DNA of 23,156 nt from Psammoneis japonica (GCA_008632985.1 QPGO01000143.1:186001-209156); one strand, 5' to 3'. Counted from the first letter of the stretch, positions 2,336 to 19,672 are shown. A program made the numbers and translations. Notes: generated by a model not told the origin, from the sequence alone.

Positions 2336-2896
2336 CAGGTGCTATTCAAGCTTTGCTTACTGAATGTATCAAACAATTCAAAGAAAGACTTGTTTTTGTA
2401 ATCTCTTGTGGTGATTGCATCGTTTAGCATTGTAACACGGGTACGTAGTAGCCCTTGGTCAGGATATTACATGCAAGATGGATGCTACGACTAGGTTAGA
2501 ATAGGAAAACTTTAAATTATGTAGGAGAACCACAACCCATAGACACCTTCCAGCTTCTCTTCGACTGCTAAAGAGCAAGACTCGCTCTCTTCTCGTGTGG
2601 CGCAATAAAGCAAGGAGATGGGTCGACATCTTACTCCAATCATACGTGTTGGACATGCGGCTGCATGTCGTTCATTCGTACGACACAATTCGTCTTTAGG
2701 GTTTATTGCGTGTTGCTGCTTTGGTATCTCCTTTTTGTTTTTTAAGTAGAGTAGCATGGGCTTCCTGAATAATGTGTACGGTAGTGTTGCAGGGAAGATA
2801 ATAATGTGCAATGAGTGTTCCAGTTGTTCCTCCGACATACAAGTTCAACTCTATTCTAGCTAGAGTAGAGAGTCATTAGTCGACAAAACTACAATA

Positions 2897-5722
2897 CATG
2901 GCATTCAGATGACCGAGACATTTGCGAAGATCCTGCCATTTCGCTTCATGACGGTGCTGGTGTGCTCCTCACAGAATGGCAACACTGCGAACGAAAGCGC
3001 CATGAGGCATGAACAAGAACCTCAATGCCAAATTGTGCATCAGAATGCCCATTGTGCCATGCTGCAATCTGAGAGGCATCTGCAGAGAAAGACTTGTCTC
3101 ACAGAAGCAGCAGATCTTTGAACCCATGCCAGCTGAAGCTGTTGTGGACAAGGCCAGCTGTGCTGTCCACCTCAAATGCACCCATGGAGCAGTTCCTCCT
3201 TTTCTTTCAGGGTGTCAAGAGAAAGGTCATTCCACTGGCTGGCCATTGAAGAAAGAGTGGCGCCAGCTTTAACCCAGGCCAGCATTGCAACACTCAAGGG
3301 CAGCATTTCAGCCTTCCCGCCCATTGGGTGTGCAGTGTGCGCAGCAACTTTGCTGACAACATCTTCATCTTAAATCTTTCAAGTGAGTAGAAAGAAACAA
3401 ATGGTGCCCACAAAGCAACTGTGAAAGAGCCACAGATGTGGCACAGCTCTTGTTGTGCCCAGCGCAGCACTGAAAAGCATGCTTGAGTTGCAGCTGAGAG
3501 CTTGGGGCATGCTGGCGGGATGAGGCAATGTCACTTGGATCCTCTGCAGGAGACAGCCAGCAACAGCAAACAGAGTTGTCAGACTGGGCACATTGGAACA
3601 AACACAGCTTGCTGTTTCAAACATTCCTCTCCCTCTCCTTGAAGCCACCATTTCCTTGGCAACAATGAGCTGGTCTAAAAGAAAATTGGGGCGCGGGGTG
3701 CCTTTTGCACATTTGCAACCCTGGCTTGAACCCTGCCCAGAACTGGAGAAGGGTTTGCCTCAATTGTGTTTCAAATGTCAAGAGAATGTGATTGTGCAAA
3801 CCTTCAAATTCAACTCTGTGGGAGGAGGATGGCGGCAACTGGGGTTGGCAGCTGGAGAGGCACAAGCCACCAACAAGAAAGGAGCTTGGCATTGCTGGGA
3901 GATGTGGTGTGGAACGACAGGTCTTCAATTGGTGCTTTGAGTTGTGGCAAAGTGTCATGACCCACAAAATCATTTGATGTCACCAAGTTTGGTGAGCCAC
4001 CCATCCTCTCCAGCAATTTTGAAACTCAGAGTTGTTGATTGTTGACACAGTGTGACAATTTTTTCTTGGATGGGATGTGTCCCAAACCCCAACTTTTTCT
4101 TCTTGTGTGCTGGAAGTGGCAGCCCAAATTGTCCAAAGAAAAGGCCGGACAATCTGGCGCACTGCTTTGTGTGCAGAAAAAGAAGACAACTCTCTTTGCA
4201 ACCCAAACTGTGGCCTGATTTGATGAGTCATGCTGGGAGTTGACAGCAGAAGAGTGGTGGCCAAGAGTGCACACGTGTGCTGGGCTCATGTTGCAGCTCT
4301 TGCTGCTTCTTGCTCCTTGCCCTCACATGTGTGTTGTGTTTGATGGCAGGTGCACTTGCATTTTGCCAAACAAAGTGCAAGTTTTGTGAGAAGCTGTCAG
4401 CAAAAAAGCCTCTGCCAGCAAACAGGAGTCATTGGCTGTCATGCTGTGGACAGCCAGTTGAGAAAGGAGAACCCAACATGAGACAAGGCAAAAGTCCATT
4501 GCACCAACTTAAGCCAACACAGCTGTTCAAACATGGGAGGAGCCCTGCATCAACTGGAGAAGGGAAAGATGCAAGTGACACGTTGTGACAGTGCTGCAAC
4601 TGGTGGTGCAATCTTCATGTGTGCACCACCCATTTTCCCCTTCCTCAACTCTTTCTCTTTTTTTTGTTGCTGATGGTCAGTTTGTTTGGCTTTGTTTCTT
4701 TTTTGCTGACGTCTTTGTGCACTTTGGCTTTTGCTTTTCTTTGTCATCATTTTTTCCCACATGGCAGCCTCTGCAGCTCCAGCCACCCACATTGACCTCT
4801 GTGCTCATGTTTTGTTTGGGCCAAAGCAGCTGCATTTTTTCTCAATGGAGTTTGCCCTTTTTGTGCCTGCAAGTTTGTTCTTGGCAATCCAGTCATTGTT
4901 TTTGCTGGCCCTGTGAGGAACAAATTGTGGCACACACACTTTGTGTTTCTCTAAAAATTGCTGTTTTTTGTTGTGCCGGTTTCTTGGCCTTGCGGGCTGG
5001 GTTCACAGCTGCAAAAGTTTTTTGTTCTTGCCTGCTTCAGCATCCAAGATTTTTGCTTCAAACAGAGCAGATGGGGCCTCTTTTTGGCATCCCACCCTCC
5101 TCAAACATGCCCTCTTTGGCTTTGTCTGACTTGCTGCTTGCTTGCCACTTGAAGCATGGAGGAGTCCAAGGACAAGGCCAATGGACCAGAAGGATGGCTG
5201 AAAGTGGGCCAAAGAAGGAAAGCATGCTTTTTCCAATTGCTGGCTTTTGCCATGTCAACCACCTTGATGAGGGCTTTCTTGTTGTTCTTCTGGCTGTGAT
5301 GATTGATGAGCTCTCTGTCAGCTGATGCAAAACTGTCAATCAGAAAGGTGTCATCATCCTTGTCTGGTTCGCTCTTGAGAACTTTTGTTGTGGCACTGCT
5401 TCATCGGAGGAGAAAAGGCAAATGAAATGCCAACCCCAATCTTCAAAAGGGGCTTGAGTGACTTTTGGGTTCCCAGCCTTGACTGTGTTCTCAGTCATCT
5501 CAGAGTTGTCCAGTGTTCCATCTCCACCACCACGTTTCCTGTGGTGCTTTCCATCCATCGGGTGCTGGCATCTTTTCCCATGTTGTCAAAGAGCTTGTTT
5601 TGGATGCCTTGTTGCTTCGAATTTTTTTTGGAGAAGTCGTCTCGCTTTGTGTGGCCATCTTCTTGCAGGAGGACGGTGCACCTTTGCATTTGGTGCTGTT
5701 GGTTTTGGTGGCCATGGCGTTT
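2897..5722 (-). pseudogene. Hypermutated TpA/CpG-depleted block containing a decayed minus-strand coding sequence of unknown family (TE or captured gene)
   Basis: Only 6 TA in about 2.8 kb. Protein-like minus frames, e.g. from ATG 5715 (MATKTNSTK...KVLKSEPDKDDDTFLIDSFASADRELIN) and 3369-2946 (DEDVVSKVAAHTAHPMGGKAEMLPLSVAMLAWVKAGATLSSMASQW...), are broken by TGA and lack Tyr. Confidence 0.5.
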
Positions 5723-6111
5723 TATGGATGCTGTTTCCACTTGTGCTCAGGAATTCGTGCCACTCTTCGAAGACTCTCTAGCCGTTGCGCGCCGGAAAAG
5801 TGACAATCCAACAAACTGTGTGACGGAATCGTCTGGTCCATCCATCTTCCAGTAGAATCGTCGTGGACAGAATAAAAGCACAAAGGGCAAGGGACTTGCT
5901 AGAATAATTTTCCTGGGTAAGGAAAGCGATTTCCATCTGTCCATATTAAGACTTGATGATAAAACATTATCTTCTGCAATTACTGATGAAACGGTAGAAA
6001 AGCGTCTACGTTAGATGAATCATTCTAGGTATTCTTGCTAGATGTTATGACTACATCCGCTTCCACCCTGAAAAGATATGCATCTGTTACAGTTTGCCCC
6101 TTTCACGGCGT

Positions 6112-6939
6112 TCATTTGATTCTTGTAACAAGTACCTCAAATAGCAGAGTCGCGTCTGTCTTGAATAGGTTTTCGAACCTTCGCTTTCCGTCTTTTGTAG
6201 TAGGTAGGGGAAGTTGGTTTGCTTTGCGGGCAGGATAAACCTGTGTGGATGGAACCTCGATCCGTCGCAAAGCATTTCGATGCATCCCCATCATGCCCTC
6301 TTCTAGACCTGGCAATAGTTCGCCACTTCCAATTGTCCATGCCAATTCATTAAAATCTGTATCTTCCTTTGTGGAAAAAAACTTGATCCCTCCAGGTTCG
6401 TTCTGTGTCGCAAAGGACTTGCATCGAATCGTCATTTCGACAGCCACCTTGGATCCCTGACGGACGACTGTGAAGATGGATAAAGCCTTATGTTATATAA
6501 GGTACGTGAACAGCATTACATGTTTGAAAATGCTCAACACCAATGGTACGTACCCTCCTCTCCCTTTCCTTCGCGGTATTCACGATACGACACGCCAGAC
6601 GGCAACTCCGTGAACGGAACATCGACAAGGTCTGTTGCCGGTTTTTGGATGGCTTCGATCTGACGCAATCGTTGTGCCGTCCCCGATTCATCTCCCTCTA
6701 CGGGGAGACTTTCAGCAGCGACGGGTCGATCCCGGCATTTGCCACCGATGGGATTGTCAACAAGGTCGCGAGGCTGCTAGCTGTAGTAAGAAACGACCGA
6801 CGACTTGTTGCTGTACTTCCTGTCTTTGTCGATTCGGCGCCCGTTGTTGAGTAGTTAGAGAAAAAGCAATGCAGACCTCCCCAAATCCGATCGCCTGAGC
6901 AACAAGGACAAGTACACACGGCTTCAGCTGTACCATCAT
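6112..6939 (-). CDS. FKBP-type peptidyl-prolyl cis-trans isomerase, probably plastid thylakoid-lumen targeted; 2 exons (intron 6468-6553); two apparent 1-bp deletions (~6805, ~6711)
   Basis: FKBP motifs LPSGVSYREYREGKG, GELLPGLEEGMMGM and ATLLFEV. Signal peptide ends ...CIA-FSL, followed by a twin-arginine peptide SRRSFL...VANA. A GTACGT...CACAG intron joins the frames correctly. The start could alternatively be 6948. Confidence 0.8.
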
Positions 6940-7404
6940 GGCGGCCATCAAATAAGATTGCAATAGCGGTGTTAGCGGTGTTGTAGGGGAGATACATAGT
7001 GATGACGATGTCACGAGAAAGCTTATCATGGCAAGGTGAAAGATACTTTCCGCATCAGTGATGATTTTTAATCTACAGCACGGACTATTGTATAATAAAT
7101 CACTATGACAAAAATAGAACGTGATTTTCGCTTACAGCTGACGATGAAACGGCTCGCTGTGAGATTTGTACTCGACGAGCCGTGGAATATTATATATTCA
7201 TCCTTTATATATTATAAACTGAATAGTACTACAATTCCTTATACTACATATACCTGGTATTTACTGTACTGTGTGGATTCTCCCTCCATCGTGGATCGAC
7301 GAAGAAAATCGACATGATGCGAATCGTGCGTGGTGTTTTTCTTGCTGTTGCTTTTAATCCCCACAATCATTGCAAAAGCAACAACCATCAACAACAACGA
7401 AACG

Positions 7405-8039
7405 ATGCAATCAGATACAGCGAATGATGCTGCAATTGCCTTGGCAATCGCAGAGCAAGAACACCAACAAGCAACAGCAAACAATTCTTCTGTTGTCGCG
7501 CACGACTCGTCATCGGCACGTCGTCCTCCACAACAACAACCATCACCGTCTCAAACGAGTAGTGTCTCGTTACCTCCATGGCTTTCTTCGCTCGTTCGAC
7601 AACAACAACCCTACATGTGCACGGTTCCCTGCGTGATTAGTGGTATTTGTGTCGAACTCATGGTGGATTCGGGAGCATGCACGTCGGTCATTTCGTATGA
7701 ATTGGCCAAACGCTTGAATTTGGAGTCACGCATCGACCGCCGACACGGTGGTGTCGCCAATGGGTGGGACAAGCCAAGATTTTGGGAAAAATATCGGGAG
7801 TTCCGGTCGAATTGGGACATGTCGAGTTTTGTATGGATTACTCCGTCTTGGATGTACCGCAACAACAATTGTTGTTGTTGGGATTGGATCAAATGAGAAA
7901 ATACAAATGCATTATTGATTTGGAACAGGATGTACTGATCTTTGGTGGGCATGGTGGCGTACAGGTACCCATGTTGAAACCACATCAGCAGCAACAACAG
8001 CCAATGTTTCGAACACAAGACGCATGTGAAATCATGTAA
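7405..8039 (+). CDS. DDI1-like retroviral-type aspartyl protease domain protein with no UBL/UBA; apparent 1-bp deletion at ~7763
   Basis: Catalytic MVDSGA. Adding one G gives GVANGVGQAKILGKI, then LLLGLDQMRKYKCIIDLEQDVLIFG, typical of the Ddi1 RVP domain. Confidence 0.8.
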
Positions 8040-8521
8040 ATTAGGTGTTTGGGCAGAGCTGGTCCTTTTCGCGATGTGATGCTCCTCCCTCCATACCGGT
8101 GCAGTAGTAGAGTAGCTTGGTTAGAGAGTTTTCTGCAGTGCACCAGTAGCCACAACACCAGCCAACCCAAAAAGCCAAAATGCTGTGAATATAACGAATA
8201 GTACCCGTACGTCTTGTTGAGTTGTCGCGGCTCTTTCGCTCACAAAAGTTCACGACCAAAGCACGACTGCGAGAGGAGATTTGATTTCAGCCACACGACC
8301 CAAACCACGTTGGTCATCGGAGCACTATCGTCCATTCGAAGCTAACAATCCCTGTACTGGTACTTGATTCTTAATTGGGATACACTAGTTAATCATATCA
8401 CTACTTTGACCTTATACAAGAAAGCCCACTCCACTAAATTGTGCTTGTTCTTTTTCATTGTACATGAGCTGGTCCTTTGCTGCTACCCCTCCTTCTTGTT
8501 ACTTTTTCCCGGCCTGTTTGG
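7871..8521 (+). repeat. Direct repeat copy A (~650 bp): DDI1-like 3' end, intergenic DNA and last codons of ACS
   Basis: Colinear diverged match to 10395-11053, from gttgttgttgggattggatcaaat to ttactttttcccggcctgtttgg. Confidence 0.95.
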
Positions 8522-8630
8522 TCACAAAAAAATAGGTGCCCAGGTTAGCCCCGTTGTACGTAAATGGGAACGGAGGGAAATCCAGCCGAACTAGGCCACC
8601 ATTGACCCCCCCCCAAAAGTGACCAAACAG
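8514..8630. repeat. 12-bp inverted repeat CTGTTTGGTCAC / GTGACCAAACAG at the duplication junction
   Basis: 8514-8525 is the exact reverse complement of 8619-8630. Confidence 0.7.
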
Positions 8631-8860
8631 TAACTTGTTTCAAATGTTAGAATTTGCTTGTCCAATTGACCCTAAAGGTTCCCAATGAAGCACTTGACTC
8701 CTGCCTGTCACAATTTCCCCTAAATACGGTCCGCCAAAAAGTCGTCAATCGCACAATGAGCTCGCGGATCCCGTGTAAAAAAGATACACCACTTTGCTAC
8801 CTACCAGTAATGAAAAACATAGGCATTGGCACTCACAAAGTGTTCTAAGTCGTATCCGGT

Positions 8861-10150
8861 TCATTGCTTGCGGCACACAATTTTAGTTGATGGCATCTCT
8901 TCGCCCTTGCATATTGATTTCAACACGAGTTCGAGAACTATCCAGTTCAGTAGGTCCGTGTTATGACACAAGTTCGCAGAATCCAAGAGAGCCTGAATGG
9001 CCGTGCAATTCCCAATCGACAACGCCGTTGCCAACAGGTCTCGGGAGTACTGAATGGCGGTTGAACCATCATCGTCCACGTTGTCTCTGATGTGGTCCAG
9101 CAACACAACATTATTTAGAAAGGCAGACAAAATCTCAGGAGGCCAAACCCCCTTATTGTTGCCATGCCTCCAAATGAGACACTGAAGAGGAGTGTCGCCG
9201 TCGACATTGGTTTGGAACAAGGCTGTCTTGAGGCATTTCAAGGTTGTCGACGACTTTTGGACCATCCAATTGGCCAGCTCGAGCACTCCATCATTTTTCA
9301 CCGACGCATTCTTAAAAAAGTAGTGCATGGGGTTGTTTCCCCTGCGGTCCTGTCGTCGCAGGGCCGAAGGATAACGGTGAATGACCCTCTTGACAAGGCG
9401 GACCGAAATGCCGGAATAAAGAGCTGCTCCATCCTCTTGCGATAAATAATCCAAGAAAGATTTGGTTGCGGTTGCCGGCGTGTAATCTCGCGATAAGTAG
9501 TCCGAGAAATACTTTGTTCTTGCGACAGCCGTCGTGTAATGTTGCGATAAATAATTCGAGAAAGCATAGTGAAGGGGTAGGCAGTATGTATCCTCATTGA
9601 CGAATTTGACCGCCTCCTTGCGTTTGTCAAAAATGCTCCAAATATAACTGGTAGGCAGCGAGTTTTGGAATGCTTTGTGAAGGGCGTCATCGTCCATAGT
9701 CTCGTCGTCGTCGTCGTTACCGGAAATCGTGTGCAACGCCCAAACAAATGACCTGGGAAGGAAATTGACCGAGCCGCAAGGGTTTCGTTTCCAACTCAAT
9801 AGCGCAACTAGTAACAAGTCTTCGGTGCAGACATTGTCATTCTCGTCGCTCTTGCGGAGACAGATCGACTCGTAACGGACCACATGGATCTTTCCGATTC
9901 TGTCAAAGCGAATGGATGCAGGCTCGGTGATCAAATCGTGTCGATCCATGAGATCGTAGTAACACGAGGGACATCTCGGATAAGCTTGAGTGTCGTCCAA
10001 GCAGCAAATTAGATTCTGAATGTGTTGACGGGCTATTGGAGATAGCGAGTTGTTGTAGGTAGAGGCGAAGGCATCCGGTGGGTCCATGCTAACGGACTCT
10101 TTGTTGTCAGTCCAGTTGGAAGCAGAGGAGAAGGCACGCGGTGGGTCCAT
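8861..10150 (-). CDS. Degenerate ankyrin-repeat-like protein (~429 aa)
   Basis: Long ORF with ankyrin-like segments YCLPLHYAF, VIHRYPSALRRQDRRGNNPMHYFF and QTNVDGDTPLQCLI. Internal repeats are spaced in multiples of 3 (63, 51, 54 nt). Start uncertain: in-frame ATGs at 10438, 10246 and 10150. Confidence 0.6.
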   Translation of the reverse strand: MDPPRAFSSASNWTDNKESVSMDPPDAFASTYNNSLSPIARQHIQNLICCLDDTQAYPRCPSCYYDLMDRHDLITEPASIRFDRIGKIHVVRYESICLRKSDENDNVCTEDLLLVALLSWKRNPCGSVNFLPRSFVWALHTISGNDDDDETMDDDALHKAFQNSLPTSYIWSIFDKRKEAVKFVNEDTYCLPLHYAFSNYLSQHYTTAVARTKYFSDYLSRDYTPATATKSFLDYLSQEDGAALYSGISVRLVKRVIHRYPSALRRQDRRGNNPMHYFFKNASVKNDGVLELANWMVQKSSTTLKCLKTALFQTNVDGDTPLQCLIWRHGNNKGVWPPEILSAFLNNVVLLDHIRDNVDDDGSTAIQYSRDLLATALSIGNCTAIQALLDSANLCHNTDLLNWIVLELVLKSICKGEEMPSTKIVCRKQ

Positions 10151-10394
10151 GTTTGTTGGATGGTTGAAGAGATCAGCAACGTCTCGCGATTGTAATGAAA
10201 TAGCGTGGTTTCTTATGATGTTGGATGCTGGGGATGGGACGAACATGATTGAATGAGATGCATGGTGGTCGCAGGTAGGTCTCGGTCGCAGGTCTGCAGT
10301 CTTGTCTCGACTGACGTGGTCGCGGGAAGCGCACGCAAGCCGCAACGGAAACGCAAGGACCACAACATTGATCAAAGGACCATTTCTTTTGACA

Positions 10395-11053
10395 GTTGTT
10401 GTTGGGATTGGATCAAATAAGAAAATACAAAAGCGCATTATTGATTTGGAACAGGATCTTTGGTGGGCATGGTGGCGTACATGTACCCATGTTGAAATCA
10501 CATCAGCAGCAACATAATGGCCAAAATGTTTCGAACACAAGAAGCATGTGAAATGATGCAAACTAGGTATTTGGACAGAGCTCAGAGCTGGTCCTTCTCG
10601 CGACGTGATGTTCCTATCTCCATACCGGTGCAGTAATAGTTTGGCTAGAGAGCGTTCTCTGTAGTGCACCAGTATCCACAATATAATACCGGCCACCCCA
10701 ATAGTCAAAATGTTGTGAATACCCGTACGTCGTGTTGAGTTGTCGCGGCTCTTTCCCGCACAAAAGTTCACGATTCACGACTGGAGCACGACTTCAGACT
10801 GGGAGGGCATTTCAGCTACGCGACCCCGACTGCGAGGGTCATCGAAGCACTATCGTCCATGCGAAGCTCATAATCTCTGTACCAGTAGTACTTGGTTCTT
10901 CATCGGGATAAACTAGTTAATCATATCACATCATTGCACTACTTCGACCTTACAAACCCACCCTACTATATTGCGCTTGTTCTGTTTCATTGTACGTGAG
11001 CTGGTCCTCTGCTACTACCCCTCCTTCTTTTTACTTTTTCCCGGCCTGTTTGG
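10395..11053 (+). repeat. Direct repeat copy B: frameshifted DDI1-like 3' fragment, intergenic DNA and the functional ACS stop
   Basis: Colinear with 7871-8521. The DDI1 portion carries a +2 insertion and an 8-nt deletion. Confidence 0.95.
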
Positions 11054-13160
11054 CATTGATCTTTTCAATCAACGTGTCGACAATCGACGGGTCCGCCAAG
11101 GTGCTTGTATCGCCCAACGAATCCACCTCACCCGCTACAATTTTGCGCAGAATGCGTCTCATGATTTTTCCACTCCTCGTCATGGGCAAGGACGGCGTGA
11201 CACAAATAACATCGGGACTGGCAAAGGCACCAATCTCGGTGCGGACCATTTGGCGCAGCTCCTTCTCGAGCGTTTCCGTTTCTTCGAATCCCACCGTGAG
11301 CATGCAAAAGGCACAAATCGATTGGCCCTTGATGTCGTGGGCTTGTCCCACCACGGCGGCTTGGGCGACGGCGGGATGACCCACGAGGGCGCTCTCGACT
11401 TCGGCCGTTCCAATGCGGTGACCACTCACGTTGAGCACGTCATCGACACGACCGGTAATAAAGTGGTAGCCGTCCTTGTCGCGAATGACAGCGTCGCCGG
11501 TAAAGTAGTAGCCCTTGTAGGGTTTCATGTACGTCACCAAGTACCGTTGGTGATCGCCCAAACAAGTCCGTGCCATGCCGGGCCACGGTTGACGAATCGC
11601 CATGACACCCTCGACACCATCTTCAGTGGAATCCAATTCCTTGCCCGTGTGAGGGTCCAACACCACCGTGTCAATGCCATAGAAAGGCAAGGAACAACTA
11701 CCGGGTTTCATGGGTGTCACTCCGGGAAGATTGGTAATCACGTGTCCACCCTGTGAAAAAATGTGAAAAAATAGCAGCGTTAGTGTTTTCCTCTACAGAG
11801 GGAGCTTGAACAAATCGGACAAATCATATATATTGTAACTTACCGTCTCGGTCTGCCAATAGGTATCGACAACAGCACAATTCTTCTTGCCCACCACTTC
11901 ATAGTACCACTTCCAGGCTTCGGGATTGATGGGTTCACCAACGGTACCCAGAATTTTGAGACTGTCGAGATTGTGGTTCTCCACATGCTCGTTGCCGTAA
12001 CGCATCAAGAGACGAATGGCCGTCGGTGCCGTGTACAAGGCATTGATTTGATGACGCTCCACCATGTCCCAATAACGAGCCGGCGTTGGATAGACGGGGG
12101 TGGACTCAAACATGAATGTCGTGCCTCCATTCAAGAGAGGGCCATAGACAACGTACGTGTGTCCCGTAATCCAACCACAATCGGCAACACAGGCAAAGAC
12201 ATCGCCCACCTTCAAATCAAACACGATCTTGGCCGTCATGGCAGCGTAGAGGGCGTATCCACCCGTCGTATGGAGCAAACCCTTGGGTTTGCCCGTGCTC
12301 CCCGAGGTGTACAGGATAAAGAGCGGGTCTTCGGCATCCATAGTGGCTGGAACACAGTACGGACGCTGCAAGGCCACGAGCGGATCCATGCGTACATCCT
12401 TGTCCAGCATATCATACGGTGCGTCCTCGGACTTTGGGTCATGAAACCGCTCATACACCAACACCTTTTCCACCAAGTCGTCATTGCACCTCGTCAGAGC
12501 GTCATTGACGATCTTTTTGAGTTGAATGGTTTTCCCTCCACGCTTCCCCACGTCGGCCGTCACGACACACTTGCTTTGCGCCGCCGTAATGCGTTGCGCC
12601 AGAGCTTCGGCGGAAAATCCGGCAAACACCACGGAATGAACGGCACCAATCCGAGTGCACGCCAACATGGTAAAGGCCAATTCGGGAATCATGGGCATGT
12701 AAATCGTGACAACGTCTCCCTGTTGGACACCCTGCGATTTGAGGGCGTTGGCGACTTGACACGTTTTGCGCAACAGCTCGGTATAGGTAATGGACCGCAC
12801 GTCGGCCGGCTCGTCTCCTTCCCATAAAATGGCAACCTCGTTACAGGCTCCTCCTGCGGCTGTTCCCGTTGCCCACCTGTCGACTGCATTGTAACTCATG
12901 TTGAGTTTCCCACCGGCAAACCACGTGACATCGCCATACTCCATGGATCCACCCATGACACTATTGGGATTGAATGGCTGAAACCAATCGAGGTATTCCG
13001 TCGCCTTTTTTGCCCAATACGTTTCGGGATCGGCAATGCTAGTCTCGTGCTCGAGTTTGTACCGAGCCAGAGCCAAGTCAGACTTGCTCTCCACCACTTG
13101 CTTCATCCAAACATTATGTTGCTGCTGTTTCTGCTGGTCTTGCTTTGCTTCTTCAGTCAT
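11031..13160 (-). CDS. ACS: Acetyl-CoA synthetase (AMP-forming acetate-CoA ligase), 2 exons (intron 11751-11843), ~678 aa
   Basis: [31 protein letters not shown] across a GTAAGT...CACAG intron, [23 protein letters not shown] and [13 protein letters not shown]. No obvious targeting peptide. Confidence 0.96.
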
Positions 13161-13227: not shown

Positions 13228-13488
13228 TTTTTGTTGAGTCGTATCTCTCTATGAGAACGCGAAGCAACGTCTTGTTGGCTTCAACACCTCCTCAACTGGC
13301 TTTTGGCATCGCGAGTTTGAATGAAGTTGAGTGTGTTGACGAGTGTTCTCATGTTTTCAGAACCTCACGTAGAAATCTACGTTGATTTGTAGGGAAGATC
13401 CAAGATTTGCAAGATTTGCCGCCGACATCAGCACCACGTACGTGCATCGAAAGGTAGACGCGCGTCTCTCTCGCGAGTCGCGAGCGTA

Positions 13489-16400
13489 CCGTGGGCCACT
13501 TTGTGCTTGGTGCTGTCAGCTCTCAGCTCCATCTCTTGTGTGTGCTGACCTCAAGCCCAATGTGTTGGAGCAGGTCTGCTGTGAGGTTGAGCCCATCATC
13601 TCACACTTGCTCTCAGTTGAGAGGCCACAGACAGCTGCCCATTGCTTGTGTGGCAAAATGAAAAAACAGACAGAGTTCTGGCTCCACTCATTTGTCCAAG
13701 GTTGGGTCATGCATGTTGGCCTCCCAGTGGCAACAAATGGCAACATCCCCTCCATTGGATTGAGCATCCTGGGAGATGGAGGGTTGCCATTGGTGCAAGT
13801 CTGTGATGAGCCCAAAATGGCCTCCCCCACAACATCCTGCCTGTTGCACAACTGCCCATTCTTTGCTCCAAAATCCCTGTGGGACACAGCGGGGTTGACA
13901 CCATGCCACCTCTTTGTCTCATCTCAAGGGAGCACCACCTCTCTGGTGAACAAGGTCAAGCACCTTGGCACCAAAGGCAACACGGGGTTGGCGAAGGTGT
14001 TGTGGCTCCAGGATTTTGGGCCCCATCTGAAGCTTGCAACCAACCAATGAATGACACAGCAGCTCCAGCCCCCTGTCTGCCACAAGAGCTGGGAGAAAGC
14101 TTGGGTGGCACAGCACCCCCAGCCAAGGGCTTCTTAGAAGCAGCACAGCTGCAGCCACAATTGCTGCAATGTGGGTCATCATTGCCCAAAGTGCTGTGCT
14201 GCAGATCTCAAACAACTCATGATTTTTTTAAGTCACAAACACAGTGGGGGGCAGCAGAGCCAGCAGAAACACAAGCTTCGCACATGGATTCATCCAAAGA
14301 GGGTGCTTTAAAGCACTGTGCCAAATGTGCCTCAGAGCTCATCAATGCAAGCAGAGAAGTGGTGCATTTGTGTGCAGCTGTGCAGCAGCCAAAGTGCTTG
14401 TGCAGCAGGAGGTTGTGCTTTGGAGCAGGTCTGCTCCTTCAACATCCAACTCTTTGTCACAGAACATTTTCCTGCACAAGTTGCTGCTGTGTGATCCTTG
14501 GCACAACTGCCAACATGCAAATGTCTCTCCTCCCTTGTGGAGCAGACTGCAGTGTGGGTTTCAACTGTGAGTGATCCGTGATGCTGAGAGGTTGTGCAGA
14601 GACTGGCCATCAACATTGCACGTTGCACCTTGGATGTGTGAAAAGAATCCTGAGTGCACAATGTTGCACTGTGCAGCATTCACCAAGTGCCAAGCCAAAC
14701 TTGGAGCATTGCTCTTCACTCGTGAATGAACATGTTCACGCCATTGCATGAAGAAAATGCAGTGCTCAAATGACTTCATGTTTCTCAGCCAGGTGTGCCA
14801 GCTCAGGAGAAATGTTCTTGCAACTGCAGTCAACTGCAATCTGTCAACCTGCTTTTGCTAAAACTGCCTGCTTGGCATGTGAGGCAAGAGCTGCTGCATT
14901 GCAACAGATGATCTGCTGCTTTTTTAAAGCCAAAGCTGCAACTTTTGATTTTTTGGCTTTGGCGCTGCACCACACTGCCCTTTGGGCAGTGCTCTCTTTA
15001 ACTGGGAGACTGGCGAGGTGATGAGTTTTCATCCCAGGTTGGGGTTGGTTGCCGGGTGTGACACTGTGTTCATCTGTTTTCCATCACCATGCTTTTTGCA
15101 TGAGAAACAATTCTCATCTGAGCTCATGCTTTTTCCCAACATTTTGCATCATCTTTCATCAGATCTGTTCACTTTCAATGACTGGCACCACCTTCTTTGT
15201 TTGTTGGAGGGTGCAGACAAAAAGAGAACAAAGCTCTTTCAGAGTCCCTTTTTTTCCACAGCAAAGTGGCAGGAAACTGCACGTGGCAGCTTTTGGAATG
15301 ATGTTCTTGAATTGCTCTTTTTCTGTTTTTTTCTTGTTGCATTTGACCATTTCAAAAGAATGTCAGCTTTCTCTGTTTTGCAATGAACTCGTGCAAAAAA
15401 AGACCATTCTGGCACCATTGTGTTGGTGCAAAAACTTGGGCAAACTGATTCACACACATTTTTCTGTGCGGCCGCCGGCCCTCAAAAGAGCCAGCAGATT
15501 TGTTCACCAGCGCAAATGCCCAGCATTGCAGAGGCAGTCTTTGACTTTGTTGACTGTGTTGCAATGAAATGGTTGCTTGGCAGAAGCAGGTGCACTGGCC
15601 GAACATTGTGGCAGAACCTCTGATGTTTTTAAACAACAACAAACTCTGCTCTCTGTTTTGCAACAAAGCAAGTGGGCTGCAAAATCTGGATGTTGTTGGT
15701 GCCATTGTCATGCTTCACAATGTTTGACACACACGTCACTCATGTCTGAGCTCCTTGGTCATCTTGAACCCTCCTCAAAAACAGAGTGGGGGCATTCTGT
15801 CACTGGCGCCAAAAATCAATCTGTCCAAGTGCATCAAAGTGCCAAGGTGCTGCACATGTTGGCATGAAATGTCAAAGCAACCACTCCAATGTGTCATGAA
15901 AACACAAATCATAAAAACACAAATCAAACCTGGTCAAAAATGTCCCCACAAGACAAAATGCACCACTGGCCACAGCAACACCCCGGTGAACTTTTTGCAT
16001 CAACCAGCCTCCAGCCTTTTCTTGCCACCAGCTCACAACTGTGCTCTTGCTTTCACAGCCCTGGCAGATGTTTGTGTGCAAATGGACATTTCTTCATGGC
16101 AGCAACATCGTGCCTTTGTCTGGTGTGCAAGATTTGTGGATGTGAGAAAAACAAAAAATGGCAACACTGCATGGGAGAGTGCAAAAATTGCACATGGGCG
16201 GCTGTGGTGTGCAAAAAAGTGTGCGTCACACAGAAATGTGCAGGAAACCTCGCCTGTTGTCTCCAAGTGACGACCCACCTGGGTTGAAAACAAATGAGGT
16301 GCAAGAAACAGCAGCCAAATGATGATGAGCTGCCTGCAGTGCCGCCCTCTGCCAGAGCTTGCAAAAGCTGTTGCTTGCGTGCCTGTGCTGCATGGCTCTC

Positions 16401-16631
16401 TGGCAACTGCCTGGCTTGCAGCCATCTCAAAGAAGCACACAGTGCACCCCCACGCAAACAGACGACGAGGAAGGTGTCTGTGTGCCGCACTGCAGCGCAT
16501 GGATCCAAAATGAAAACCATCTTGAAGCAACTTCAAGTGCGCTGACGGAGGAAAACACGCAGACTCGATTGTGACTCTCACATCCCTGTCAGCGCTCCCC
16601 TTCTGACGCATCTGCACGTGTTTGTCTGTTC
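13489..16631 (-). mobile_element. Hypermutated TpA/CpG-depleted block with a decayed minus-strand coding sequence; probable TE relic
   Basis: Only 8 TA in about 3.1 kb. Protein-like minus frames are interrupted by TGA (e.g. MHDPTLDK*VEPELCLFFHFATQAMGSCLWPLN*EQV*DDGLNLTADLLQHIG). No family motif or convincing TIR/LTR recognised. Confidence 0.5.
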
Positions 16632-16729
16632 TACAGATTCCTTCTACGATTTGTCCTACTAAAAGTCGACAAGACTAACCCTAAATGATGTGCAGAAATA
16701 GGGTCCTAACAGTTCCTAGCTAGAGTATA

Positions 16730-17209
16730 ACATTCCTCTTTACCGCGCGGAAGTAGGAGGTTTGAGGTTTATGATGACAGTTCTGGCACACATTCCTCTT
16801 TACCGGCATAAATGGGAAGCTTGTCAATCGTAATGACTTTCATTCTGAGGCATAAATGCTTTGTCCAAAATAAATGTGTTTTTGAATCCAATGACTTTTG
16901 ATGTTTATACTACCAATCTCTAGATTTCTACTGTGATCGTTTGGCTGATTCGAAAATGCTGGTCATGGTCATCGTGGCAACTCTCTGACTTTGTTCGTGT
17001 GGTGGTGTTACATAAGTACTGAATCCGAAATTAAGAAAAAATGAAGTTTAGGGCCTATGTGTCGTGCTCTGGGACAAGACTGCTCATAAATAATGTCGAA
17101 AGGGATTTACAGTACATAAAAGCTTTGTGTAAAATTTGTGTCATTATTTGAACCCAATGACTTTTCGTTATCAAGATATGCGGGTCATGGTCATTGTCGT
17201 TGACAACTG
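16730..17209 (+). repeat. Short degenerate direct repeats upstream of the M11 peptidase gene
   Basis: ACATTCCTCTTTACCG at 16730 and 16790. A diverged unit cataaa.gctttgt...ccaatgactttt...ggtcatggtcat at ~16851-16982 and ~17115-17209. Confidence 0.7.
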
Positions 17210-17462: not shown

Positions 17463-19672
17463 ATGAAAGCGTTTCTTGCGATCTCTCTCGCTGCGGCCTT
17501 GAAGTTGGGTTACCATGGAAGCTCAGCAGCGGTAAGCAGCTGAAACTCGTTTTGTGCTGAGCTTCGTTGCGCTCTTTCTTAGCCACGGTAACGGTCATTT
17601 TGTATTCTCACGCCGTTGCTGCTCTCCCGATCGCTACACTACAGAGCAACGTCTTTAACCTTCGTGGTCCACCCTTTCAGGATCAGACATTGCCTTGCAC
17701 TATGTTGTTGAAGGAGATTCATCGTGAAATTCCTGACCCGAGTTTGCCCGACTTTGCTTGGGATTGCGAGCTCGATCCTCAGGACGCTGATGGCGTTGAA
17801 GGCATCATTATGGAGCTGGACGGCCTGAACCTTCCACGCGACGCCAAGGATAACTTCGGGCAGAGGCTTATCTCCGGAGAGTCCACAGTCTTTGTGCCCG
17901 GAACCAAGATCGACAAGGGCAAGGCCAAGGCGAAAGTTCCTCCGGGAGTCCCACCTGCGTACGGCCGTCGTCGTCGCGAGGCTGCTCAAGGCGGTCGCCG
18001 ACTTCGGACAGGTAATTGGACGGTTTTTGCTGTACGTGTGATTGCCACTGACGGTTCAACAAGTAGCTCTACTGCTGCCATCAGCAACTTTGTTTTTGGC
18101 ACCTCTGGCGACCAGGTGAACCTCAAATCGCAGTACGCTGCCTGTTCGCATAATCAGCTTATGTTCGAGCCAGCGCCTTTTGCTACAGATGGGGTCATCG
18201 AGGTGACGGTAAACGTTGCTACTACCGAAGGCGATGGAGTCATGAGAAACGCCATTACAAGTGCGATCCAGAACCAATACGGACTTTCACCCAACAGTTT
18301 GGCAAATTATGGTACGTCTTTTTGACTCCTTGTTCATTTCGAGTCTCTTGATTCGTGGAATTAAATGCCCAACACACAAAAACGAGATTGATCTTGTTCT
18401 TGTTGCTAAACTCACTTCTTTTCTTCTGTTTCAGCCATGTATTGCCTCCCTTCAGGTACTATGAGTGGGATTGCGTATGCCTACATTAACTCGTGGAACT
18501 CTGTCTATTCCAACCAATGGTGCAATTACGTTTCCGCTCAAATGCATGAGCTTGGACATAATATTAACCTGGCACACAGCGGTGAAGGATCACAGCAGTA
18601 CGCGGACCAGAGTGGAATGATGGGGTACTCCTATTCGAGTAGCGAGACCCCAAAAATGTGTTTCAACGCAGCAAAAATGTGGCAGCGTAAGTCTACATCA
18701 TTTGGCAAGTGTTCTCATTGTTTGTGAAATATTTACTCTCAACAATAATCTCTCTTTTACCTTCTTTTTCGCATCATGCACAGTCGGTTGGTTTTCTGAC
18801 CGCCACGTAGCGATCAATCCGCTTACTGCGGCTGGACCGGTGATATGATTGGGTCAGTCGACTACGAGAACTCGGCAAGCGACAAAATGATTGTCCTCAA
18901 GATCAACAGGACCGCCACGAGTGAAGATGATTTGTTTGTCATGTTCAACCGAAAGGCTAGCTACAACTCGGACACGAAAGAAGGCGGAAACCAGGTCATG
19001 ATTGTGGAAACCGGAAGAGAAGGCCTTTTGTACGACAAGTCTCTTCTGTAGCCAAGTTGAGTGCTGGTGGGCAGTATGTGATCCCGAATTTTGATGGAAG
19101 TGGAACAGATGTCACCGTTACCGTGAACAGCATCAACCTAAGCAGCACTCCGGCAATAGCGTCGGTAACTGTTCAAGGTTTTACTGCATCTCCAACGGAA
19201 TCCCCAACTCCCTCTCCGACGGATTCACCGACACCTTCCCCTCCACCAACGGATTCTCCAACTGGATCCCCTTCGTCGTCTCCATCAGCGGCGCCAAGCT
19301 CGCCGCCGACTCCTTCCCTCCACCACGTCTTCTCCAACTGGATCCCCGTCGTCGTCTCCATCAGCGGCGCCAAGCTCGCCGCCGACTCCTTCCCCTCCGC
19401 CGACGGCATCTCCGAGTGAATCCCCGTCGTCGTCTCCATCAGCGACGCCAACCTCGGTGCCGACTCCTTCTCCTCCACCGACGGCATCTCCGAGTGATTC
19501 CCCGACGTCATCTCCTACGAAGGGCCCGACGCCGACGCCGACTCGTTCTCCTACACCTTCTCCGACTCCTGCGCCTGTAGCTGTGAATTGTGCTCCGTTG
19601 CGGGGTGGAACATGCAGGGATGCAGGTTGCCAATGGCTAGGTGGACAAGGTGGTTGCGTCCCTTCAAACTAA
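17463..19672 (+). CDS. Secreted M11 (gametolysin-like) zinc metallopeptidase with Pro/Ser/Thr stalk and short Cys-rich tail; introns 17532-17644, 18312-18434, 18687-18783; four apparent 1-bp deletions (~18828, ~19048, ~19317, ~19327)
   Basis: Signal peptide [19 protein letters not shown] processing site. MYCLP...[10 protein letters not shown]. Zinc motif [12 protein letters not shown] and DQSGMMG, then [12 protein letters not shown]. All three GT-AG introns are phase-compatible. Confidence 0.85.
19228..19520 (+). repeat. Coding tandem repeat, 78-bp unit ([20 protein letters not shown].), about 4 copies
   Basis: Unit starts at 19228, 19306, 19382 and 19460 (spacing 78, 76, 78). Confidence 0.9.

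Follow-up and report, generated by a model that had tools for sequence, protein, structure and literature searches.

Two diverged copies of a duplicated unit in Psammoneis japonica differ from each other in a strikingly one-sided manner. In the 23,156-nucleotide stretch of DNA analyzed here (QPGO01000143.1:186001-209156, referred to as the window), copy A carries TG or CA at 17 aligned sites where copy B has TA or CG, and the reciprocal arrangement occurs at only two sites (two-sided binomial p=0.00073). A formal alignment with a binomial test, by which an earlier sequence-only reading of this DNA had wanted its manual comparison to be judged, therefore upheld the asymmetry it described. Transitions in other contexts are split 9:8 between the copies (p=1), which shows that the skew is not a general difference in rate or GC bias. 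The duplication, the orientation of the differences, the restriction of the skew to the TA/CG class and a conversion-like composition of three TA- and CG-poor blocks of the window were all directly observed. The reading that we tentatively favor, at somewhat short of an even chance, is that copy A was weakly exposed to the process by which these blocks lost their TA and CG.

The copies were recognized as a direct duplication by repeat search and local alignment. Copy A (7871-8521, plus strand, 651 bp) and copy B (10395-11053, plus strand, 659 bp) are 87.9% identical in the local alignment, which comprises 620 columns with 545 identities and 75 substitutions, 43 of them transitions. They sit on either side of a 1873-bp insert, between the convergent genes for DDI1 and acetyl-CoA synthetase, and the duplicated unit begins 56 codons ahead of the DDI1 stop and has the final few codons of the synthetase gene at its right end. 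Copy A consists of the last 56 DDI1 codons, the stop codon at 8037-8039, a spacer of 482 bp and, at its right end (about 8499-8521), a remnant of the synthetase tail, in which the final codons of this gene are present as a dead copy. In copy B, a decaying fragment of the DDI1 C-terminus is followed by the spacer, and the synthetase gene has its live 3' end there. The DDI1 fragment is broken by an 8-bp deletion and two 2-bp insertions, its translation contains stops, and its own stop codon has changed from TAA to CAA, a difference from position 8037 of copy A that the sequence-only reading had reported correctly. The working end of DDI1 is in copy A, which is a 3'-to-3' spacer, and that of the synthetase gene is in copy B.

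The DDI1-type retropepsin is represented by its C-terminal part (7761-8039, plus strand), with an open frame at 7761-8036 and a TAA stop at 8037; the final 169 bases lie in copy A. The frame matches the Pfam family PF09668 (Asp_protease, E=3.1e-08) and DDI1/DDI2 chains in the PDB (E=3.6e-07 to 4.4e-04). The acetyl-CoA synthetase gene (11031-13160, minus strand, stop 11031-11033) is convergent with DDI1 and contains the AMP-binding (E=4.6e-74) and ACAS_N (E=6.2e-16) domains. Its best relatives are diatom proteins with up to 70% identity, for example from Nitzschia inconspicua and Cylindrotheca closterium, and the window is diatom nuclear DNA. The insert (8522-10394) has an ordinary dinucleotide content with 66 TA (rho 0.53) and 113 CG (rho 1.03). 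It contains an open reading frame on the minus strand (8861-10246), which starts with an ATG at 10246 in a frame that stays open up to 10771 within copy B; copy B is therefore located on the 5' side of the gene within the insert. A Pfam search with the product of this reading frame gave no family, its codon periodicity chi-square was 17-28, and its nearest ESM Atlas clusters were ankyrin-repeat proteins (score 0.96), commonest in Bacillariophyta. The product looks like a diatom ankyrin-repeat protein, which we regard as a lead. A 1.87-kb segment with this ankyrin-like gene presumably came between the convergent DDI1 and synthetase genes, and the tails of both genes together with the spacer would have been copied to both sides of the segment during that event. 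Elsewhere in the window, four tandem units of 76-78 bp (19228-19548), which are 72-85% identical to the reference copy and lie in a C-rich, very strongly codon-periodic stretch, look as if they encode a proline/serine/threonine-rich repeat protein.

The sequence was checked against reads by means of Logan contigs of one sample (runs X1, X2, and X3 of one study). In a search of sequencing runs, this source sample was the only public sample containing the stretch, and no RNA run was listed. The read contigs match the window at 4583-8844 with no other letters and at 9087-13160 with two, and they confirm both copies and both junctions, so that the A/B substitutions are not assembly errors. A third copy of the unit was not seen in the aligned read contigs, nor was an allele lacking the duplication present among the contig joints listed. 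One of the run X2 contigs is spliced; it spans 10917-13160 and has an intron-like joint from 11749 to 11843. The contigs of this run skip 86 and 93 bases (6467-6554 and 11749-11843) with CT..AC ends, corresponding to minus-strand GT..AG introns. Run X2, recorded as 'DNA?', covers only genic parts and so resembles an RNA library in its behavior. Within a run of Gs near 7762 (about 7755-7765), the reading frame of DDI1 is displaced by one base. Read contigs and window differ by nine gaps over 4583-8844, with an extra T behind 6709 and 6843, and the frame shift is for this reason probably a homopolymer error of the assembly rather than the sign of a pseudogene, position 7762 itself not being among the differences listed.

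All 14 sites that had been picked out by eye in the stretch 8041-8521 were found as described in the local alignment. Copy A has TG or CA where copy B has TA at 8047, 8136, 8156, 8292, 8346, 8432, and 8482 (TA class), and where copy B has CG at 8075, 8160, 8295, 8376, 8407, 8442, and 8464 (CG class). A further site of the same direction within this stretch, 8359, lies beside a gap, and two more are located in the coding part, at 7895 (TA class) and at 7908 (CG class, beside a gap). The accompanying statement that the stretch holds no clear reciprocal change needs to be qualified, because site 8114 is reciprocal (GTAG in A, TTGG in B), but it lies in a poorly aligned patch. For the whole pair, the ratio of sites with TG/CA in A to reciprocal sites is 9:2 in the TA class and 8:0 in the CG class. 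TA is present in A, B or both at 37 aligned sites, nine of which are these TA-class sites, and the CG-class share is similarly 8 of 31. Copy A has 34 TAs in total and copy B 40 (28 and 34, respectively, in the spacer). At three positions (7998/9, 8257/8, and 8306/7), all in poorly aligned patches, CA in A faces TG in B, and no such double difference occurs the opposite way; if real, they would mean that the same CG or TA of the ancestor disappeared from the two copies through changes on opposite strands. The seven TA sites are all non-YTAR, as had been noted, but this is uninformative: YTAR accounts for only 3 of the 24 conserved TAs and 4 of the 40 TAs of copy B. None of the nine B-only TAs is YTAR, as would be expected by chance at such frequencies. 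The pair has no power to detect a sparing of YTAR, and the argument from context carries no weight.

Each copy also contains the 10-mer GAGCTGGTCC twice (8056 and 8466 in A, 10585 and 10998 in B), and it occurs nowhere else in the window. These four matches compare with 0.06 expected, and none of 100 shuffles reached four. The 10-mer may have a function as a motif in the convergent spacer. Just upstream of the first GAGCTGGTCC, copy B repeats the CAGAGCT that copy A has once. The internal repeat of GAGCTGGTCC was considered as an outgroup and rejected, the homology being too short to polarize any site.

Within 8041-8521 alone, the skew amounts to 14:1 (p=0.00098, two-sided binomial). Taken separately, the CG class gives p=0.0078 (8:0), and the TA class is of marginal significance (p=0.065 for 9:2 and p=0.070 for 7:1 in 8041-8521). 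After realignment with MAFFT (628 columns, 85.4% identity), in which 8160 and 8407 are dropped and a reciprocal site is created at 8270, the ratios are 9:2 for TA and 6:1 for CG, and the combined 15:3 gives a p value of about 0.0075 by hand calculation. When only strict columns were counted, defined as having no gap within 6 bases and at most 2 mismatches, the TA class gave 4:0 (p=0.125) and the CG class 5:0, combined 9:0 (p=0.0039). The combined skew is robust, and each class alone is borderline.

The number of class differences, as opposed to their orientation, is unremarkable. A simulation of 43 random transitions yielded about 11.8 TA-class and 10.2 CG-class differences (10.0-10.5), compared with 11 and 8 observed; with counts that match random expectation, only the orientation is odd and there is no excess of TA- or CG-class differences. 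About 11 reciprocal sites would be expected, half of the approximately 22 simulated class sites, and two were seen. The Poisson probability of two or fewer is 0.0035 at a mean of 9.7, a mean that was estimated by hand, and for the TA class alone, with two reciprocal sites and about 5.9 expected, it is 0.067. The scarcity of reciprocal sites fits a copy A in which new TA and CG do not persist. Differences are less frequent in the coding part (9 of 161 columns) than in the spacer (66 of 459; Fisher p=0.003). Three further approaches were discarded. A relative-rate argument, in which 51 spacer differences would be expected, with both lineages changing at the rate of the coding part of B, compared with the 66 found, rests on nine differences, which are too few. 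A strand rule of the form TAY to TGY or RTA to RCA fits about five of the nine TA-class changes and fails for four, and the order of TG and CA products along copy A shows no significant runs (both hand calculations).

In its overall composition, the spacer of copy A is TA-rich for this genome. Its rho(TA) is 0.81 (28 TA) and its rho(CG) 0.71 (18 CG), with TG at 1.20 and CA at 1.16; the spacer of copy B has a rho(TA) of 1.05 and a rho(CG) of 0.96. The means over 256 equally sized background windows are 0.58 for rho(TA) (sd 0.13, maximum 1.04), 1.01 for rho(CG), and 1.21 for TG and CA. Copy A thus ranks in the top 4.3% of the background for TA and copy B exceeds all 256 windows. Nine intergenic segments with a rho(TA) of 0.49-0.92 are likewise all below copy B, and a nearby region (6801-7286) reaches 1.04. 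For CG, copy A ranks in the bottom 3.9% and copy B at the 42nd percentile, although the value of A lies within the range of the nine intergenic segments (0.56-1.48). CG therefore reads as lost in copy A, and TA is not depleted there in absolute terms. Neither a near absence of TA and CG nor a surplus of TG and CA, which characterize the blocks described below, is found in the A spacer. Since this spacer is already TA-rich, an ancestor from which A changed would have had a rho(TA) of at least about 1.05, above all background windows and intergenic segments. Either the ancestral spacer was unusually TA-rich, or copy B gained TA.

The three blocks provide stronger and stranger evidence than the duplicate pair. 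Block 1 (1-984), which begins before the start of the window, contains no TA, and its CG is sparse to about 720 and near normal at 720-984. Block 2 (2896-5722) has six surviving TAs and a CG-poor core (2999-5532), flanked by margins (2896-2998 and 5533-5722) which keep CG and lack TA. Block 3 (13488-16631) has eight surviving TAs, a CG-poor core (13491-16198) and a margin (16199-16631) with 17 CGs and no TA. Counted over 870, 2603, and 3011 bp of the blocks, there are 0, 6, and 8 TAs, and 500-bp windows wholly inside them show TA at 0.00-0.10 and TG/CA at 1.4-2.3 times the expectation. The gain of TG and CA (0.0773 per bp) nearly balances the loss of TA and CG (0.0878 per bp) at a base composition equal to the background, which fits a conversion and not a selection against these words in general. 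A process turning TA and CG into TG and CA thus plausibly exists in this genome. Codon periodicity is weak in the blocks, and none of 55 stop-to-stop reading frames within them matched a Pfam family at the family's own threshold (best E=0.0055).

The claim of the sequence-only reading that TA loss is coupled to CG loss does not hold in the margins of the blocks. The margins 720-984, 2896-2998, 5533-5722, and 16199-16631 (265, 103, 190, and 433 bp) contain no TA at all compared with 10.8, 4.2, 7.7, and 17.6 expected, and they hold 11, 7, 7, and 17 CGs, respectively. The TA-free span is hence wider than the CG-poor core, and the two losses are separable. The TA edges of the blocks are sharp, with for example 20 TAs in 16632-16871, and both the insert and copy B are untouched, so that the further claim, that the process reaches ordinary host DNA next to an insertion, finds no support here. 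Of the TAs surviving at 2998-5600 and 13490-16500, 12 of 14 are YTAR (8 TTAA, 3 CTAA, 1 TTAG), the exceptions being GTAG at 3388 and ATAA at 15912, compared with YTAR shares of 12 out of 66 for the insert and 4 out of 40 for copy B. The effect of the YTAR context in the blocks is real. The surviving TAs fit the description 'TTAN or NTAA' equally (13 of 14), and they could be new TAs derived from TCA or TGA instead of survivors.

Contig depth at 1-2668, 3497-3635, and 14675-15341 is 2-4 times the baseline of about 56, and a 16.4-kb contig matches 1316-1449 and 3497-3635 with roughly 83-91% identity. This indicates that parts of the blocks and a FUT8-like gene have diverged paralogues elsewhere in the genome, and the paralogues of the block parts could serve to polarize the block process. 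Among the matches listed for the paralogues of the FUT8-like gene (433-2009), the window has TG or CA where a paralogue has CG at at least six sites, the reverse holds at at least two, and at least one site is of the TA class. We gave this set no weight as a second duplicate test, because it concerns a coding region and mixed contigs.

Polarity could be read in the coding part of the unit. A metagenome search yielded six DDI1-like loci, the best two with 63% and 55% protein identity, and these two relatives keep DQMRKYKCIIDL. The ATG at 7895 and the TGC at 7908 of copy A are therefore ancestral and copy B is derived: 7895 is a gain from TG to TA in B, and the CG of B corresponding to 7908 (10434) came with a 2-bp insertion. 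At the stop codon 8037, the CAA of copy B represents a loss of TA to CA in B. Outgroup polarization thus takes one of the nine TA-class sites, 7895, away from the side on which the sequence-only reading had placed it. Where its polarity is readable, copy B changes both ways, as a decaying fragment should, and these sites are silent on the spacer. No alignment was obtained between the flanks of the metagenomic loci and the spacer (best blastn E=0.15), and the loci contain no TA-free runs of 150 bp or more. That copy A and not copy B changed in the spacer is hence an assumption, and the skew there is unpolarized.

The pattern differs from known mutational systems in several respects. In fungal repeat-induced point mutation (RIP), C:G-to-T:A changes mainly at CpA lead to a gain of TpA and a loss of CpA/TpG in the mutated copy. 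Here, copy A, in which CpG is also reduced, has fewer TAs than copy B, and the blocks are almost free of TA; TA would be destroyed rather than made, the sign of RIP would apply to copy B only with the polarity reversed, and RIP, for which an enzyme of the RID/DNMT4 type acting before meiosis is characteristic, is known from fungi. As in RIP, context-dependent transitions mark duplicated DNA and reshape its dinucleotides, and they become visible by aligning the copies, a likeness that is based on passages of PMC2621366 and PMC3017866. According to the former, RIP mutates both copies of a duplication, a feature not reflected in the orientation of 17:2, or of 9:0 in strict columns. With the decay of methylated CpG in silenced DNA such as methylated transposons, the pattern shares a replacement of CG by TG/CA that is limited to one copy and to discrete blocks. 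The one-sidedness of this change (8:0; 6:1 with MAFFT; 5:0 in strict columns) and the lowered CpG ratio of copy A (0.71, bottom 3.9%) agree with such a decay, and faster CpG transitions were not seen (8 compared with about 10.0-10.5 expected). Methyl-CpG decay spares TpA, in contrast to the blocks, in which the loss of TA is as complete as that of CG and extends further. The very-short-patch repair of enterobacteria targets the deamination of 5-methylcytosine and converts T:G mispairs in a TA-containing word to C:G, thereby depleting CTAG. This system is bacterial and specific for CTWGG/CCWGG, whereas in the blocks described here TAs of the CTAG type (YTAR) are spared. Thymine DNA glycosylase (TDG) removes T opposite damaged or deaminated adenine, the latter being hypoxanthine, after which C is inserted (Talhaoui et al., 2014, PMC4041421). 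This aberrant repair, a documented precedent for errors through T excision, resembles the present pattern in being a context-dependent A:T-to-G:C change, with T-to-C tied to enzymes of CpG repair, but in the passages of PMC4041421 concerned the context is TpG/CpA to CpG, which creates CpG, whereas here TpA would become CpA/TpG and CpG is lost.

The best reading in our view remains that copy A experienced a weak form of the process seen in the blocks. It would have turned CpG, and probably also TpA, into TpG/CpA more often than copy B did, under a low dose of the strand-symmetric, DNA-level pressure that acts on the blocks. The CpG part might be due to deamination of 5-methylcytosine in a methylated copy A, and the TpA part to an A:T-to-G:C transition at TpA, for which adenine deamination or the excision of T by a G-T/hypoxanthine-T glycosylase recruited to silenced DNA are candidates. 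A single process acting on one copy would account for the two skews, for the even split of the control class and for the small number of reciprocal sites; the direction of the skew matches the one predicted from the blocks, and TA and CG are skewed toward the same copy with similar shares. Against this reading, the blocks are all-or-none, and nothing else in the window is in a part-way state. The sequence-only reading had concluded that the pair captures a directional loss of TA part-way and gives independent evidence for it within the window. The skew and its specificity for TA and CG stand, but the TA class is marginal and in the coding part copy B is the derived one, so that the pair offers a significant but small and unpolarized skew, a pointer and not an independent proof.

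The main rival, which we consider less probable, is ordinary divergence without any process directed at TpA. It would consist of CpG decay in copy A only, for instance because the convergent 3'-3' spacer may be methylated and the promoter-side spacer of copy B not, and the TA skew would be sampling noise. This agrees with the CG ratio of 8:0 (p=0.0078) and the rho(CG) of 0.71 in A, which is low compared with the background, and equally with a TA class that falls short of significance (p=0.065 for 9:2 and p=0.125 for the 4:0 of the strict columns), whose total equals the random expectation and of whose nine sites one is a proven gain in B; moreover, copy A is not TA-poor. It leaves unexplained that in every alignment the TA and CG classes are skewed alike and that reciprocal TA-class sites are few (2 compared with about 5.9, P=0.067), and CpG transitions that are not raised (8 compared with about 10.2) are odd for a methylation-driven decay. 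An alternative of mixed polarity, in which C-to-T deamination accounts for all 17 events by acting at CpG in copy A and, like a RIP aimed at a single copy of linked duplicates, at CpA/TpG in copy B, appears unlikely. The spacer of B does have the highest rho(TA) in the window, above the 256 background windows and the nine intergenic segments, and the only TA-class site that can be polarized (7895) is a gain from TG to TA in B. Passages of PMC9998398 further indicate that diatoms carry a DNMT4 which may group with the fungal RID. However, this alternative requires a different context-specific process in each of two copies that lie 2.5 kb from one another; RIP, as described in passages of PMC2621366, affects both copies, yet copy A has only two sites with TA for TG/CA; copy B keeps its CpGs, and the window contains no TA-enriched block, the existing blocks being of opposite sign. 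A literature search found no paper on RIP-like mutation in diatoms.

A relaxation of constraint seems more improbable still. Here, the ancestral spacer would have been TA-rich for functional reasons such as 3'-end signals, and copy A, most of which lost this function, would drift to the genome-wide TA deficit mainly by transitions to TG/CA, whereas copy B would be held by new or retained functions. With a background rho(TA) of 0.58 (sd 0.13), TA-rich DNA freed from constraint should indeed lose TA, the spliced contigs of run X2 (10917-13160) place the right end of copy B in the synthetase transcript, and copy B is located on the 5' side of the inserted gene. The CG skew would remain unexplained, since no net loss of CpG is expected at a background rho(CG) of 1.01, and in 8040-8102, which is transcribed in A and dead in B, the sole TA-class site (8047) goes the wrong way.

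If copy A was weakly exposed to the process of the blocks, as we tentatively favor, the process itself may be of a new kind. No description of a joint erasure of TA and CG toward TG/CA was found for diatoms or elsewhere in the full-text literature, with most subscription journals lying outside its range. One conceivable form, which we put forward with considerable reserve, is a locus-targeted, strand-symmetric hypermutation that converts the two self-complementary dinucleotides CpG and TpA, the latter outside of YTAR, to TpG/CpA, in effect a RIP of opposite sign, with copy A caught part-way and copy B representing the starting sequence. Such a hypermutation would include an A:T-to-G:C arm, perhaps by paired deamination of adenine and cytosine or by glycosylase-driven repair. 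As reported in passages of PMC9998398, diatoms methylate transposable elements through DNMT5a, and DNMT4, whose function is given as unknown, is present in 8 pennate and 23 centric species out of 60 diatoms. If changes from TA to TG/CA are truly recorded in copy A, it would offer the first polarized, site-by-site view of a process that removes TpA along with CpG from chosen DNA, and an A:T-to-G:C arm of genome defense or of silenced-chromatin repair would be suggested for diatoms.
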